NCBI GenBank assembly: GCA_046714175.1
Contig: JBKKBI010000093.1
Coordinates: 1-63,319 of the forward strand
Direction of reading: 5' to 3'
From: Acidimicrobiia bacterium
GTDB lineage: Bacteria; Actinomycetota; Acidimicrobiia; Spongiisociales; UBA11373
Length of the DNA stretch: 63,319 bases
The position numbers and the translations under genes are program-made. The notes below the pieces were generated by a model. That model saw only the letters and a program-made list of their open reading frames with translations. It made no database searches and was not told where the DNA came from. Below are positions 52,728-58,953 of the stretch, in pieces; position 1 is the stretch's first letter; every line of letters starts with the position of its first letter.

Positions 52728-54002
52728 GTGGACGCGCCCCGATCCCACCCCGATCCCGGGCTGCCAAGCGGGCGGGTGGTGCTCGCCGACCGCTCGGTGC
52801 GTGCCTACCTGGTCGCCGCCTCTATCTCTTCCCTCGGGGCGTTCCTCCAAGCCACCGCTCTCGCCAAGCAGGTATACGACGTCACCGGGTCGGCGCTGGC
52901 ATTGGGACTCCTCGGGTTGGCCGAGTTCCTCCCCGCCGCCCTGCTCGTGCCCTTCACCGGTTCGGTGGCCGACCGCTTCGACCGCCGCAAGGTGGCCGCG
53001 ATCGGCCTCGCCGGAGAGGCGGCGTGCAGCGCCATGCTCGCCGCCTACGCCTGGTCAGACCCCACTTCCTCGTTGCCGCTGTTTCTGCTCGCCTTCCTGT
53101 TTGGTTCGTTCCGGGCCTTCGTCAGCCCGGCAATTCGCTCCCTGCCGCCGTTGGTGGGACCGGCCGGGAGCCTGCCTCGGCTGGTGGCGCTGGGATCAGT
53201 GACCTGGCAGGCAGGGATGATCGTCGGACCGGCGACCTCGGGGTTCCTCTACGACGCGGGTGCCGCCCTCCCCTACCTCTCGGCGATGGCACTATTCCTC
53301 GTCGGGGCCGCCGCCCTGTTGTTGCTGCGGCTCACCCGGACGCAGCAGCGCACCCCGGCGGAGCAGCGCCCCAGCCTGCAACACGCCATGGAGGGGTTGC
53401 GCCTGGTGCGGCGCAACCGGGTGCTCCTCGGAGCGATCAGCCTCGACCTCTTTGCGGTTCTGTTCGGCGGCGCTTATGCCCTGCTCCCCGCCATCGCCGA
53501 CGAACGCCTCGGCGTGGGCAACATCGGATACGGATGGCTGCGCGCCGCCCCCGGTTTCGGCGCGGTGGTGATCACCTTGCTGCTGGCGGTGCGACCGGTG
53601 CGACGCCGGGTGGGCCGGGTGCTTCTCGGCGTGGTGACCCTCTTCGGGCTGGCCACCATTGCCCTCGGGATCACCACCACCTATGTGGTGGCCTTCGCCG
53701 CCCTCGTCGTGCTCGCCGGAGCCGATGCCGTCAGCGTGTTCATCCGCGCCACCATCGTCCCGCTCGCCACCCCGGATGCGATGCGAGGCCGGGTGGCGGC
53801 GGTGGAGAACGTCTTCATCGGCGCCTCCAACGAACTGGGGGCATTCGAGTCCGGGGTGGCGGCGCACCTCATAGGGGTGGCCCCAGCCGTGGTCGTCGGT
53901 GGGTTGGCCACCTGCGGGATCGTGGGCCTGTTCTGGGTGCGGTTCCCCGAGCTGAGGGACATCGACCGGTTCGCGGATCTGGAGAGGCACGCCGGCGGGT
54001 AA
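52728..54002 (+). CDS. MFS transporter
   Basis: [30 protein letters not shown]. Confidence 0.93.
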
Positions 54003-54019
54003 AGGCACCTGCGAGCGTA

Positions 54020-54049
54020 TACACCAGATGGTGTACGGCAGTGTATACT
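54020..54049 (+). promoter_or_regulatory. vapBC promoter/operator (probably leaderless)
   Basis: Inverted repeat TACACCA-GA-TGGTGTA; TATACT -10 eight nt before ATG 54058. Confidence 0.65.
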
Positions 54050-54057
54050 GCAGGCTC

Positions 54058-54258
54058 ATGGGTCGGACCAACATCGACATCGACGACGAGTTGGTGGCGC
54101 GAGTGATGCGCCGCTACCACGTCACCACCAAGCGGGAAGCCGTTCACCTGGCGTTGCGCCGCGCCGCAGGCGAGCCGCTCAGAGGCAAGGAGTTGCTGGA
54201 ACTGCGGGGATCCGGCTGGAGCGGCGACCTCGAGGCGCTGCGCTCCGATCGATCGTGA
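54058..54258 (+). CDS. vapB: VapB antitoxin
   Basis: [13 protein letters not shown]...[11 protein letters not shown]...WSGDL. Confidence 0.9.
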
Positions 54259-54650
54259 TCCTGATCGATACCTCGGCGTGGATAGAGTTTCTGCGCGCCA
54301 CCGGATCGCCGACGGATCGGCGCGTCGCGATGATTGCCGGTGCGGACCCTTACGCGATCACCGATCCGATTGCTGCCGAGTTGCTCGCCGGAGCCACCGA
54401 CGCCCACCAGACACGCAGCGTCCGCGCCGTGATCGACTCGGGTCGGTTCTTCCCGGTACGGCCCCTGTTCGACTACGAGGTCGCAGCCGAGCTGTACCGC
54501 GAGTGCCGCCGTGTCGGGGTGACGCCGCGCAGCCTGGCCGATTGCCTGATCGCCGCGGTGGCGATCGGCAACGACCTGGAAGTTCTCGCCGCGGACCGTG
54601 ATCTCGAGATCATCGCCCGGCACAGCCCACTACGGCTGGCTGCGGTGTGA
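54255..54650 (+). CDS. vapC: VapC PIN-domain toxin
   Basis: [26 protein letters not shown]. Confidence 0.92.
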
Positions 54651-54662
54651 CCGTGGTGGTTA

Positions 54663-54703
54663 GGGGGAAAGGAGCTCCTCAGCGCACGGTCGAGAATCTT
54701 CCC
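54663..54703 (+). other. attL of serine-integrase element (core TC at 54679-54680)
   Basis: GAGCtCCTCaGCGC matches GAGCgCCTCgGCGC at attR; inner arm GCGCACGGTCGAGAATCTTCCC is an inverted repeat of the attR inner arm. Confidence 0.75.
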
Positions 54704-54736
54704 ACCATTCCCTTCCAGATACGTGTGGCCGCGTAG

Positions 54737-55240
54737 GCTTCCTGTTTGAGACGAGCAAGGAGACCACGAAGGTGGAGGCGGGCCTGGCGTGGCGCCCTTA
54801 GCCGATTGGCTGGGGGCGGCTCCGCAATTCTCAACACATGGGCGGCCCACCGGAACCATCGAACTTCTCTGGAAGACAGACGGCAGCTTGCATCAGCGCT
54901 TCGAGGGTCGGACCTCCCGGTAGCCGAGATCGGCCGGGGGACCGCTCCGATCGATGCGACCGCGCAATTGGCCCTGCGCGTGCAAGGCGACCGCTACCCA
55001 ATGCTGGTTCTCGAGACCAGACGCGACTTTGCCGAGAGCGTGGTTAGGGAAGATCGCGGAGTCGGACCCTAGAAGCGGCGAGCGCTGGAGGGACACGCTC
55101 GCACCGAGTCTTAGGGATCGACTAGACGATATCGCTGACCTCGCCCACGCCCTCCTAGGTCAGGCGAACGAACTGTCAGATCTGATCCGAGGCGGCCTTG
55201 CCTACCACCATGCGGGGGTCCCGGCGTCGCTCCTACGAGA
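54737..55240 (+). pseudogene. Frameshifted fragment of Ski2-like DEAD/DEAH helicase
   Basis: LSDLIRGGLAYHHAGVPASLLRE motif; upstream frame PMLVLETRRDFAESV; no intact start or end. Confidence 0.6.
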
Positions 55241-55318
55241 GTGGGGATGGTTCCGGAGATTTCGTAGGCGCGTTCGGGGGGTTACCTCGATGTGGAGGTC
55301 GAGGAGTTCGTAGACCCG
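55240..55318 (-). pseudogene. LSR C-terminal tail remnant (copy 3)
   Basis: RVYELLDLHIEVTP(+1 nt)ERAYEISGTIPT aligns with VIELLDVRVKTTEEDYEISGSIPL. Confidence 0.7.
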
Positions 55319-55371
55319 GTGTCAAGAGTGACAACGGAACTGTGTCGCGACGAAAGGAACAGCGGGCGTGA

Positions 55372-56370
55372 TCATTGCCGCCATAGCACTGGCGTGACAG
55401 TGTGCACGCCCGCGAGGCCCTTGAGCGTCACCGAGAGGGATGCACCGAATCTGAACTCGGCGTCGTCCCCCAGTAGGGCGCGGACCGAGTCGGATGCCAT
55501 GATCTGCCCCCCTTCGGCTGCGGCTGCGATTCGGGCCGCCTTGTTGACGGTGTTGCCGAGGTAGTCGTTGTCGGCGGCCACCGCGTCGCCGGAATGGACT
55601 CCGACTCGGACGCTCAGCGGTATGTCTCCGAGCGCGCCATCGAGGTGCTGTTGGATCTCGATCGCCGCCCGCACTGCCTCCCGGCTCGAGCCGAAGGCCA
55701 GCATCGCTCCATCGCCGAGGGTCTTTACCACCTCGCCGCCGTGGGAGGTCGCTGCCGAGGCGATGATCCGGTGGTGGTCGTTCAGGACTGAAATCCAGGC
55801 GGCGTCCCCCAGTTGGACGGCGAGGGGGGTCGAGTCCTCGATGTCGGTGAACACCAAGGTGACCGTTCCGTGCCGCCCGGAAAGCACGACCTGGCGACCC
55901 TCGATCGACTCCAGAAGCTTGCTGAGAGAGGTGGTGAGGTCGACGCCGAACGACTCGAGGTTGCTTTCCCCCAGCGAGCGGTGCACTTGCACTATGCGCC
56001 ATATTCCGCTCTCGAGAACCAGCACTGCCGTGAATCGGAAGGGAGAAGGTCGGGCATCGCCGACGAAGATCGACGACCGAGCGGCCACCCAGCCAACCGA
56101 ACCCAGGTGGTAGGCCTCGAGTTCGAGGTCTTCATTGTGGTGAGGTAGCCATCCCTCGACGAAGGTCGAATAGGCGTCGACCATGTCAGGGCCAGACCAC
56201 CACTCCTGGGGATCGGTCCCCACGTATCTGGTTACTGCGGAACGCAGGAACATGTTGGCCGCTGTGGCACCCTCGCCCCGTTCCAAGGCGGCAAAGAAGC
56301 GCTCGACGACAGCGCGTAATTCTGGTGAGTCCTCGACGACAGCGCGCAATTCTGGTAAGTCCTTGGACAC
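55372..56370 (-). CDS. SnoaL-like + class III adenylate cyclase
   Basis: VFTDIEDST, VKTLGDG, RVGVHSGD, DYLGNTVNKAARI; N-terminal WRIVQVHRS SnoaL domain. Confidence 0.92.
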   Translation of the reverse strand: MSKDLPELRAVVEDSPELRAVVERFFAALERGEGATAANMFLRSAVTRYVGTDPQEWWSGPDMVDAYSTFVEGWLPHHNEDLELEAYHLGSVGWVAARSSIFVGDARPSPFRFTAVLVLESGIWRIVQVHRSLGESNLESFGVDLTTSLSKLLESIEGRQVVLSGRHGTVTLVFTDIEDSTPLAVQLGDAAWISVLNDHHRIIASAATSHGGEVVKTLGDGAMLAFGSSREAVRAAIEIQQHLDGALGDIPLSVRVGVHSGDAVAADNDYLGNTVNKAARIAAAAEGGQIMASDSVRALLGDDAEFRFGASLSVTLKGLAGVHTVTPVLWRQ

Positions 56371-56417
56371 CCGCCCTCCGGCACCGGGTGGGAGAGGCTA
56401 GTGCGACTTCCCGGGTC

Positions 56418-56579
56418 GGCGCGCATGGTGAGACTGATGCGGAACGGAAAGGCCATTCCGGCCAACTCTTGACCGGGGCTCCGAGGGGCCTCTGCTGAGA
56501 GTTCACCGGGGTTAGTTAGTGGGCCGTGGGTGGGGATGGTTCCGAAGATTCCGTAGGTGCACTCCGGGGTTACCTTGAA
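56418..56579 (-). pseudogene. LSR C-terminal tail remnant (copy 2) containing an intact att-like site at 56458-56509
   Basis: FKVTPECTYGIFGTIPTHGPLTNPGELSAEAPRSPGQELAGMAFPFRISL; 25-bp imperfect inverted arms around TC core. Confidence 0.7.
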
Positions 56580-56611
56580 CCCATCCTCGGTCCTCGCCAT
56601 AGACTCGCCTG

Positions 56612-56787
56612 GTGGTGACCTGGCTGCGTGGTGCCGCCTTGCCGATCGTTGCGCTAATGCTCGCCTCGGGTTGCGGTGGTGCGACTGGTGGGACTTTGCC
56701 GCTGCAACCGTCAACAGGCCAGACAGTCGATGGGGGCGGCACCTCGCTCCCGGCTTCTGGCTCGGGCGGCCGCGTAGTCGACTATCT
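56612..56787 (+). pseudogene. Truncated lipoprotein gene fragment
   Basis: VTWLRGAALPIVALMLASGC lipobox; runs into recombinase fragment. Confidence 0.4.
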
Positions 56788-57500
56788 AGCTTCAGCCTCG
56801 AGGGTCAACTCGAACGGCTGACCACGCTGGCGGGGCGACTCGGCTATGAGTGGGAGGACTTCTGCGACTCCGGGATCTCAGGGGAGAAGCTGGAGGAACG
56901 CGGGGCGATCATGCAGCTGCTGGGCAGCCTGGACCGGTTCGACGCGGTCATGGTCGTGGACGAGTCGCGGTTGGCGCGAAGCGAGGATGTCGCCTTTGCG
57001 ATCCGGGGTGCCTTCCGTGAAGCCAAGGTCCGCCTGATCACCCTCGAGGGTGAGACAGACCTCAGCGACCCCGGTGAGTCCGCCATGTCGGCGGTACGAA
57101 CCGTGTTCGGGGTGATGAGACCGCAGACGGCGCGTCGAGGAAATCCACGAGGAGCGGAGACGCACATTCAGAGACGGTCCCACACTCGGCCTCACCAGCT
57201 CTGAGATCCGTGCAGTCCTCGCAGGGCTCGCTGGCGAACGAAGCGAACTCGACCGAGAGATCCGGACCCTCGAGGGGAAACTCCTCGTCGCCGAGAGAAG
57301 CCCTGACACGGCCGCGACCCTCAGGCACCTCGCCAGCATCGCGGTAGCTCGGCTTGAGACCCCGAACCTCCAACTCCAGGCCGCGGTCATCGAGCTCCTC
57401 GACGTCCGGGTCAAGACAACTGAGGAGGACTACGAGATCAGCGGATCGATCCCCCTCGACACCAGCACATTCGACGGGAAGATGCCGACACGAGCGCCTC
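56788..57500 (+). pseudogene. Large serine recombinase pseudogene (catalytic N-terminus and central recombinase/zinc-ribbon region missing)
   Basis: SLEGQ...DSGISG...DESRLAR resolvase domain; after about 57115 a new frame gives coiled coil then IELLDVRV...EISGSIP. Confidence 0.8.
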
Positions 57501-57516
57501 GGCGCCCCTTACCTCG
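57476..57516 (+). other. attR of serine-integrase element (core TC at 57499-57500)
   Basis: GGGAAGATGCCGACACGAGCGCC-TC-GGCGCCCCTTACCTCG. Confidence 0.75.
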
Positions 57517-57535
57517 CCGCTTCGCACGGTTCACC

Positions 57536-57808
57536 TCAACCACCCAACCCCGCGACCCGAGCGGCCAGCGGCCCCGGGCCGACCGCTTCGAGCAGGGCGG
57601 CGAACGCCGCATCAGCTACGCGCCCCGCGGCCGTGAGATCGGCCGCGGCCAAATCCACCGCCGCGACCAATGACGCAAACGCCCCCACCTGATCCAGCGC
57701 CGCCGCATCGGCGGCGGCCTTGCGCGCCGCGTCGCCGTCGCCCTTCTCCAAAGCCTCCAATGCGCGCTCGGCGGCACTGAGCGCTTTGCGCTGCTGCTGG
57801 CCGTCCAT
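57536..57808 (-). CDS. Hypothetical Ala-rich protein
   Basis: TGATG overlap with E2 stop; helical composition. Confidence 0.7.
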   Translation of the reverse strand: MDGQQQRKALSAAERALEALEKGDGDAARKAAADAAALDQVGAFASLVAAVDLAAADLTAAGRVADAAFAALLEAVGPGPLAARVAGLGG

Positions 57809-58953
57809 CAGCCCGACACCGCCTCGATGGCTGTGCTGACCGCCGACAAGAAGGCCCGCCCCTTGGCCCCATCGATCACACGATGGTCGTACGAGAGGGA
57901 CAGCGGCATCTCCCGCCCGATGCCGATGGCGCCATCGCGCACCACCGGCTTCTCCACCGCCCGGCCCACCGAAAGGATGGCGGTGGTGCCGTAGGGGATG
58001 ATCGGGGTGCCGAAGCCGCCGCCGACCGCACCGATGTTGGAGAGGGTGAACGTGGCGCCCCGCAGGTCGCCCGCGGCCATGGTGCGGTTGCGAGCGGCGG
58101 TCGCAACGCGGACTATCTCGGCGGCGAGGCCGGCGGTGTCGCGGGTGTCGGCCGACCGCACCACCGCGACGAGCAATCCTTCAGGGGTGTCCACGGCGAC
58201 GCCGATGTCGTAGTGCCGGCGCAGCAGGAGATGGTCACCGTCGAGGGTGGCGTTGAACTCGGGGAACTCCTTGAGCACCGGGACCACCGCCTCGATCAAC
58301 AGTGCCTCGAGAGGCATCGCACCTCCCTCGCCGCCGAGGCGGGAGCGTGCGGCGAGGATCGGCCCGGGATCGGCGGTGCCGAAGGTGGTGACGTGGGGGA
58401 TCTCCTGCCAGGAGCGGGTGAGGTTGCGGGCAATGGCGAGCCGGGTGGCGCTGAGGCGCACCCGCTCCACCGGGCCACTCCCCTGCGCCGTCCCCTCGAC
58501 GTCGCCCCGCAAGACGCGACCCCCCGGCCCACTCCCCCGGACGGTGGCGAGGTCGACTCCCATCGACGCCGCCAGACGCCGCACCAGTGGCAGGGCCTGC
58601 GGAGCACCGGATCGGGCCGGCACCGATTCGGCCTCGTCGAGGTTGCCGACGATGGGACGTGCCTCGCGCCGCGGTGCAGCCGCTGGCGTCGGCGCCGCGG
58701 CGCTCCACGATTCCCCCTCCTCTCCGATCACCACCAGCAGCGAGTCGACGGCGAGGGTGGTGCCGGCGGGGGCACCGTGGTGCAGGATCACCCCGGCCCG
58801 CGGCGCCGGGATCTCCACAACGGCCTTGTCGGTCTCGATCTCGACCATGGGCTGGTCGAGTCCGATGCGACTGCCCACCGCCACCTTCCACGCCACGATG
58901 GTGGCCTCGGTGAGGCCCTCGCCGATGTCGGGGAGATGGAACTCGTACGCCAT
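57808..58953 (-). CDS. 2-oxoacid dehydrogenase E2 (dihydrolipoamide acyltransferase)
   Basis: Lipoyl ETDKA, GSGPGGRV, SYDHRVIDG. Confidence 0.94.
   Translation of the reverse strand: MAYEFHLPDIGEGLTEATIVAWKVAVGSRIGLDQPMVEIETDKAVVEIPAPRAGVILHHGAPAGTTLAVDSLLVVIGEEGESWSAAAPTPAAAPRREARPIVGNLDEAESVPARSGAPQALPLVRRLAASMGVDLATVRGSGPGGRVLRGDVEGTAQGSGPVERVRLSATRLAIARNLTRSWQEIPHVTTFGTADPGPILAARSRLGGEGGAMPLEALLIEAVVPVLKEFPEFNATLDGDHLLLRRHYDIGVAVDTPEGLLVAVVRSADTRDTAGLAAEIVRVATAARNRTMAAGDLRGATFTLSNIGAVGGGFGTPIIPYGTTAILSVGRAVEKPVVRDGAIGIGREMPLSLSYDHRVIDGAKGRAFLSAVSTAIEAVSG

Follow-up and report, generated by a model that had tools for sequence, protein, structure and literature searches.

The 63,319 nucleotides analysed here (the window) make up one entire contig, JBKKBI010000093.1, of the genome assembly GCA_046714175.1 of an Acidimicrobiia bacterium (1.89 Mb, 96% complete, 103 contigs). 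They contain a region of foreign origin, which is missing in two relatives and deviates in GC content (0.64-0.66) from its flanks (0.70-0.72), and which consists of two parts, an intact VapB/VapC pair and, at 54681-57500, a stretch of 2,820 bp that coincides exactly with one large serine recombinase (LSR) element. Inside this element, on the opposite strand, a nucleotide cyclase gene is flanked by the tails of two further integrases. An earlier reading of the same DNA (the original prediction) had recognised the integrase tails and proposed that they belong to non-autonomous mini-elements, stacked like the cassettes of an integron and driven in trans by a serine integrase. The analysis reported here points elsewhere: 54681-57500 is probably the fossil of nested or tandem serine-integrase elements.

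Our main comparison set consisted of 41 genomes of the same family, to which 260 genomes from the rest of the order were added (301 in total; the unpublished genomes G028 and G039 are counted only within the 41-genome tallies). The relatives with the same integrase tails are Acidimicrobiia metagenome-assembled genomes (MAGs). In the window, the gene of a major facilitator superfamily (MFS) transporter runs to 53983, and the right flank shared with two genomes of the same genus, G002 and G004, starts at ~57625-57640. Because in these two genomes the MFS gene is followed, after ~120 bp, by the right flank, ~53984-57630 is an insertion, which both of them lack. At the same locus a third genome, G003, is without the MFS gene too, and the locus is therefore a variable spot. 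The features of the insertion are as follows, A-type and B-type denoting two integrase subtypes when said of elements, integrases or tails:

54028-54650: VapB/VapC (PIN) toxin-antitoxin pair, intact (Pfam), directly left of attL and outside the element
54656-54703, plus strand: attL of the outer B-type element, with its central TC at 54679-80, between a B-type left arm that varies and a P'-type right arm (54681-54703) that is conserved
54696-54738, plus strand: conserved 43-nt block (distal P' motif and ~35 nt) at the inner left end, multi-copy in the family
54741-55224, no strand assigned: DNA without a recognisable gene or Pfam match, with open reading frames (ORFs) at 54746-55069 and 54954-55310
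55225-55321, minus strand: tail 3, orphan C-terminal part of an A-type LSR, with a 1-nt insertion and no attachment (att) site
55372-56370, minus strand: intact gene of a 332-aa SnoaL-domain class III nucleotide cyclase (PF13474, PF00211)
56460-56507, minus strand: internal attP-like A-type site with a P-type arm on each side and its centre at 56483-84 (GA on the plus strand, TC on the minus strand)
56475-56606, minus strand: tail 2, orphan C-terminal part of an A-type LSR (profile E 2e-21), stop lost and 5'-truncated
56779-57508, plus strand: B-type LSR pseudogene that retains the catalytic domain and the coiled-coil/tail
57476-57523, plus strand: attR of the outer element, with its central TC at 57499-500, between a P arm (last LSR codons) and a B'-type arm

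An integrated element with a dead integrase

The element is flanked by hybrid attL and attR sites, whose parent sites, rebuilt below, are imperfect inverted repeats about a central dinucleotide. Alignment of seven loci at attL shows conservation to the right of the centre and variation to the left; the right arm repeats, in inverted form, the P arm of the B-type LSR, that is, of the subtype to which tail 1 belongs. At attR the distal motif (described below) lies at offset 10 with a 7/9 match, and homology with relatives picks up again to the right of the site by ~57621-57640. Exchanging the arms of these two sites in the way expected for recombination between attP and attB rebuilds an attP with a dyad of 15/23 (distal 8/8) and an attB with 13/23, the sites as they stand having 8/23 (attL) and 11/23 (attR). 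These dyads and the conservation of the arms therefore mark out 54681-57500 as a B-type element in its integrated state, bordered by attL and attR, whose right end is occupied by a dead integrase.

The integrase at 56779-57508 is a pseudogene of the LSR family, of which it is no working member. Its tail (tail 1, 57380-57508, plus strand) matches at E 5e-18 a 47-position tail profile built from nine tails. By comparison with a relative's LSR of 497 aa (G022:C42), window positions 56779-57177 match residues 16-148 with 65% identity and positions 57113-57469 match residues 370-488, residues ~149-369, with the recombinase and zinc-ribbon domains, being deleted. The catalytic domain is itself incomplete (PF00239, E 3.8e-14, only profile positions 14-120 of 145): it keeps the RLS motif and has lost the five residues after it. 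The stop codon has changed from TGA to TTA, and no start codon was found in register. An A-type integrase of a relative, on G051:C85, has the resolvase catalytic domain, the recombinase domain and the zinc ribbon all in place. The intact LSR that the original prediction expected elsewhere in the genome was not found: the recombinase domain PF07508 has zero matches across the 96%-complete assembly, an absence that 103 contigs leave unproven. The sole other match to PF00239 above the cut-off in this genome (C41:7276-7581) lies in a 186-aa frame, which is the size of a small serine recombinase and not of an LSR.

Attachment sites in the integrase family

The nature of these sites becomes clear from the family as a whole. 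When 25 tail sites from 15 genomes are aligned at their 3' ends, the conserved DNA block ends at the integrase stop and a common TC centre lies 10 nt before the end of the last codon, with the result that attP, an imperfect palindrome of ~48 bp, overlaps the last LSR codons and has the final codons of the integrase gene as its left arm. This bears out the idea, already present in the original prediction, of an att site overlapping the integrase tail. To the right of the centre the sites fall into two classes, one with an arm that mirrors the left arm (P'-type) and one without such mirroring (B'-type). The P'-type sites (n = 8) have on average 12.9/25 dyad matches at the common centre, the next best axis reaching 9.25, and the B'-type sites (n = 12) have 9.2/25. 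In the B'-type class a distal motif of 9 nt (GACTTCGCC-like) is displaced by 5 nt towards the centre, and similarity stops just past it; over the 25 sites the motif's offset is 10 in 13 and 15 in six (with a weak seventh), four sites being ambiguous and one having no TC centre. In serine integrases, according to PMC3783163, the zinc-ribbon motif is 5 bp nearer the crossover in attB than in attP half-sites, and attB is ~10 bp shorter than attP. The 5-bp shift matches this published rule, and the mirrored class is therefore attP-like (P-P') and the other class attR (P-B').

Two further results agree with this assignment. Of the full-length LSRs, four out of five carry the B'-type arm, i.e. the attR form, the fifth being ambiguous. 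In G051, an 8.7-kb A-type island ends in a full integrase, and the genome G019, whose flank there is 89% identical, has at this locus a short site in which both motifs show the spacing of B-type half-sites. This spacing identifies the G019 site as an unoccupied attB and not as a decay scar.

One consequence of an attP arm made of the integrase's last codons is that each integrated copy keeps an integrase tail with half an att site at one edge. Another, given that the crossover lies within these last codons, is that an integrated copy would take its last residues and its stop from the target side. A split integrase of the SSV type, with attP ~45 codons before the stop, was considered and rejected on account of the variable 5' limits of the orphan tails and of the position of the dyad centre at the stop, and a motif scan of the region with two mismatches was too noisy to be used. 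The lineage was found in only one Acidimicrobiia family (15 of the 301 genomes of the order), the tail profile having no match in any of the 260 genomes from the order's other families.

Strong tail matches in the 41 family genomes number 20, of which 5 lie in full-length frames and the rest are stumps. The orphan tails have very different 5' limits, retaining anything between ~80 nt and over 600 nt (from ~20 to over 200 codons), and relatives hold LSR fragments from the N-terminal and middle parts as well. Such variation argues for a spectrum of decay and not for a designed minimal unit, and the 'mini-elements' of the original prediction, which were thought to keep only the att-bearing tail and one cargo gene, are not supported. 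Counts of live copies are lower bounds, as the integrase genes of multi-copy elements often lie at MAG contig ends. In G054 the assembly appears to be broken up by a multi-copy element, since four contigs (C34, C36, C133 and C202) each start with a serine-recombinase frame of another type, 472-495 aa long and 29-30% identical to the query.

Some of these remnants are found in arrangements that recall the window. On G051:C85 the full LSR with its attR is preceded, 8.6 kb upstream, by a half tail whose P-P' site is near-perfect, and G046:C124 has two co-oriented tails 3.3 kb apart. At a third locus (L045 on G052:C103, tail end 6468), a B-type P arm is joined exactly at the TC centre to an A-type P' arm with a 9/9 motif at offset 15, which makes this site a hybrid of two integrase subtypes.

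The inner segment

Six-frame translation recovers all three LSR C-terminal peptides, and profile or DNA matches confirm that the remnants lie where the original prediction had placed them. Read along the minus strand, the inner segment consists of tail 2 with its P-P' site, a spacer of ~90 nt, the cyclase gene, a spacer of 50 nt and tail 3. The order proposed earlier ([tail + att] - cyclase - [tail]) is thus the right one and includes a genuine att site at tail 2, tail 3 having none.

The internal att site at tail 2 is real. It is a palindrome with a dyad of 15/23 at the family's common centre and the distal motif at offset 15 (7/9), and it is the sole P'-like match in the genome (nhmmer), tail 2 itself being among the model's nine sequences. 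The cyclase gene is the only intact gene within the element, and its product matches SnoaL_3 at E 3e-14 and Guanylate_cyc at E 1e-19 (profile positions 4-174 of 183). The 5' end of this gene contains a 30-nt tandem duplication (56302-56361, 93% identical) encoding DLPELRAVVE and DSPELRAVVE. A paralogue of the cyclase, with 67% DNA identity, is found on contig C69 of the same genome.

Tail 3 matches the tail profile only as two pieces (55225-55278 and 55277-55321, E 0.0012 and 0.135), and the peptide reported for it exists only as a frameshift-corrected reading, because a 1-nt insertion shifts its frame relative to the other copies. At the DNA level it shares 87% identity over 81 nt with a tail of another genus (G022:C21, E 2.5e-19) and 83% identity with the source genome's own C82:4554-4633. 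Tails 2 and 3, which do flank the only intact gene as predicted, share 37/45 positions ungapped and, with one gap, the 42/50 counted earlier by hand. The homology of tail 3 ends at 55241, 52 nt before the expected att centre, and no palindrome or att site was found there (best dyad 12/23, under the background mean of 13). The tail on C82 (L016, ~4553) is the sole further tail in the source genome; it lies between two unrelated genes, the upstream one oppositely oriented, with no co-oriented cargo gene beside it. In tail 3 and in the C82 tail alike, homology with every other tail breaks off at one and the same nucleotide, just after ATCCCCAC, and the sequences that follow downstream are unrelated to each other.

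How the arrangement may have arisen

The tail-2 site, with P-type arms on both sides, looks like a joint between two tandem elements, and since a P-P' site is not the product of a plain attP x attB event, this is how we read it. The B-type element would have entered through recombination of attP with attB, at a TC dinucleotide that lies shortly downstream of the VapBC pair, which would have left attL at 54679-80 and attR at 57499-500, and its integrase would later have lost its DNA-binding domains. On the opposite strand inside it, we infer the remains of two A-type elements, namely an older integrase tail (tail 2), joined via the P-P' site to the cyclase gene, and, beyond the cyclase, the stump of a second integrase (tail 3). 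A small element composed of a P' arm, the cyclase and an integrase may have been joined in tandem, by site-specific recombination, at the older element's att junction, both integrases then decaying. At least three elements are stacked, as the original prediction supposed, and stacking probably took place by integration into earlier junctions; P-P' joints in general may stem from recombination of attP with a hybrid site, from dimer integration or from homologous exchange. None of this implies present-day mobility, of which there is no sign.

Several points weigh against this history. The behaviour of the well-studied serine integrases, which do not recombine attP with hybrid sites (PMC3783163), does not account for the formation of a P-P' junction. 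Only two of the ~8 P-P' sites have a detectable downstream tail on the same contig. The breakpoint shared by tail 3 and the C82 tail is unexpected under random decay. The unoccupied attB of the window's own locus was not found in the same-genus relatives, which are too diverged there and lack VapBC. The missing integrases may lie in the gaps of an assembly of 103 contigs. Lastly, the dyad of the tail-2 site is by itself unremarkable, ~10% of random 280-nt windows reaching 15/23 somewhere, and the site carries weight because of its position and the family alignment and not because of its dyad score alone.

That the tails are chance or low-complexity matches in GC-rich DNA, an idea encouraged by the weak protein-level scores of tail 3, is refuted by the E-values of tails 1 and 2 (5e-18 and 2e-21), by the DNA match of tail 3 to another genus and by the absence of profile matches from all 260 genomes outside the family, and we give it practically no credence. 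The integron- or SCC-like array, in which a tail, an att site and one cargo gene form non-autonomous cassettes served in trans by a serine integrase, has more to recommend it: the complete palindromic site adjoins the only intact gene, two to three co-oriented tails with cargo between them occur on three contigs (the window, G051:C85 and G046:C124), all five P'-type sites whose state could be judged lie beside orphan tails and not live integrases, and the outer attL and attR look intact, so that a related integrase with a directionality factor could in principle excise the element. Trans-mobilised tandem cassettes are, moreover, known for the Ccr serine recombinases of SCC elements (PMC11470126). 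We nevertheless hold this reading to be quite unlikely. No PF07508 domain that could act in trans was found in the 96%-complete genome; a complete site is not present at every boundary, tail 3 having none; a P-P' site cannot result from the simple attP x attB integration of a cassette; the orphan tails retain varying lengths of integrase coding sequence; and the contigs of the cyclase's relatives (C69 and G002:C115) have no match to the tail profile. Nor was an alternative cargo, an empty intermediate or a part of the array found in the 41 genomes searched, G002 and G004 lacking the whole region, and the many tail-and-att units beside single cargo genes that were expected reduce to the one tail on C82. 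Excised circles were also sought, in metagenome contigs from four runs that bridge 54031-56639 and 56612-57900; all have the arrangement of the window, and no joint was seen; contigs of ~5x depth, which possibly include the source sample, cannot reveal rare circles and count for little. The original prediction had named as refuting evidence tail-and-att units confined to this place or to full-length integrase genes, with no variable cargo across strains, which is largely what we found, and the alternative that it had itself put first, nested decay, fits best.

A different route to the same joint would be that the inner segment comprises a single small A-type element in more than one unit length, integrated as a dimer or concatemer, or the outcome of homologous recombination between tails. 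An integrated dimer would read attL-element-attP-element-attR, with an internal P-P' site flanked by co-oriented tails, as seen here, and the tails provide 80-400 nt of homology for exchange; yet tails 2 and 3 are just 82-84% identical, as distant as tails of different genera, and the joining of the arms of two subtypes at their shared centre on G052:C103 points to site-specific exchange, all of which makes this route unlikely in our eyes. Similarly improbable is a more active version of the nested-element history, namely that elements of this family grow arrays by recombining attP with a resident hybrid junction, besides using virgin attB, and that the tail-marked modules stay mobilisable in trans. 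Each step of such growth would leave a dead integrase tail and a P-P' site before the newcomer's cargo, and the cyclase unit, as well as the whole 2.8-kb element, whose attL and attR look intact, would be open to mobilisation by a related integrase arriving in trans.

Relation to known systems and significance

In integrons, a tyrosine integrase sits next to attI and a promoter, and each cassette ends in a complete attC. The likeness lies in the co-oriented repeats that flank a single cargo gene. Here, however, the enzyme family is another one, the array is not headed by an integrase with a primary site, an inner boundary (one of two) is siteless and no variable cargo was found among the genomes compared, so that the integron-like character that had been proposed is not supported. 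Islands that accrete at tRNA genes through tyrosine integrases are alike in another way, each new element leaving an att-bearing copy so that repeated fragments mark the arrays, but the repeat in the window is the 3' end of the integrase gene itself, and the recombinase is a serine recombinase, normally strict in pairing attP with attB.

The composite islands of the staphylococcal cassette chromosome (SCC) and the pseudo-SCC elements, which Ccr serine recombinases move, likewise form tandem stacks at one locus, some elements lacking a recombinase and an att sequence being repeated at each junction. Their repeat is the end of the target gene rlmH (PMC13739063), whereas here it is the integrase's own tail, and trans-mobilisation has been demonstrated there (PMC11470126), whereas in the window neither a live recombinase nor excision nor variable content was seen. 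With the phage-type serine integrases (A118/LI, Bxb1, phiC31), the relatives' integrases share the resolvase catalytic domain, the recombinase domain and the zinc ribbon, and the sites share the imperfect palindrome about a central dinucleotide and the distal motif 5 bp nearer the centre in B-type half-sites (PMC3783163). What differs is that attP overlaps the integrase's last codons, integration swapping the final codons and the stop, and that the lineage was found in a single Acidimicrobiia family, its copy in the window being dead. Our search of the literature, which was non-exhaustive and did not extend to supplementary files, found no description of arrays marked by integrase tails.

As it stands, the region is an ordinary decayed island. 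Its interest resides in what surrounds it in the family, which is (i) the att sites of an undescribed serine-integrase lineage as a full natural set (attP, unoccupied attB, attL and attR, with a central TC, a 5-bp shift and an attP that reaches into the last codons), which is testable at the bench and may extend the integrase toolbox, and (ii) P-P' junctions that recur next to dead integrases and include a subtype hybrid, and that hint at an occasional pairing of attP with a hybrid site. If true, such pairing would matter for the question of how strictly directionality is kept in nature, and array growth, if it took place, would be a serine-recombinase counterpart of the SCC composite islands with relaxed site pairing.

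Remaining features and surroundings

The 43-nt block at the inner left end has 24 matches in 11 other genomes of the family and one in the source genome, and no match in Rfam. Many of these matches lie near contig ends (e.g. G010:C201:1915-1974), and on G048:C72 two co-oriented blocks (3927 and 7777) are 3.85 kb apart. The neighbouring DNA (54741-55224) has no significant relative among the 41 genomes (best E 0.014); a plus-strand peptide at 55100-55240 that looked helicase-like was dropped for this reason and for want of a Pfam match. The idea of a structured RNA was likewise abandoned, Rfam giving nothing at E <= 1 across 53900-57900 and no tRNA being found near the element.

The variable spot as a whole (52728-57640) extends from an inositol-monophosphatase-like gene to a small ORF upstream of an E2 acyltransferase gene. 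It holds nothing in G003 (C87), the MFS gene only in G002 (C40) and G004 (C4), and the MFS gene, VapBC and the element in the source genome. The VapBC pair, missing from this locus in G002 and G004, has copies of 68-72% identity elsewhere in G003, G006, G012 and G023. The stretch was also recovered in four soil-metagenome runs of one study (0.79-0.96 of sampled words), and two more metagenome runs share small parts of it (0.07 and 0.09 of sampled words).

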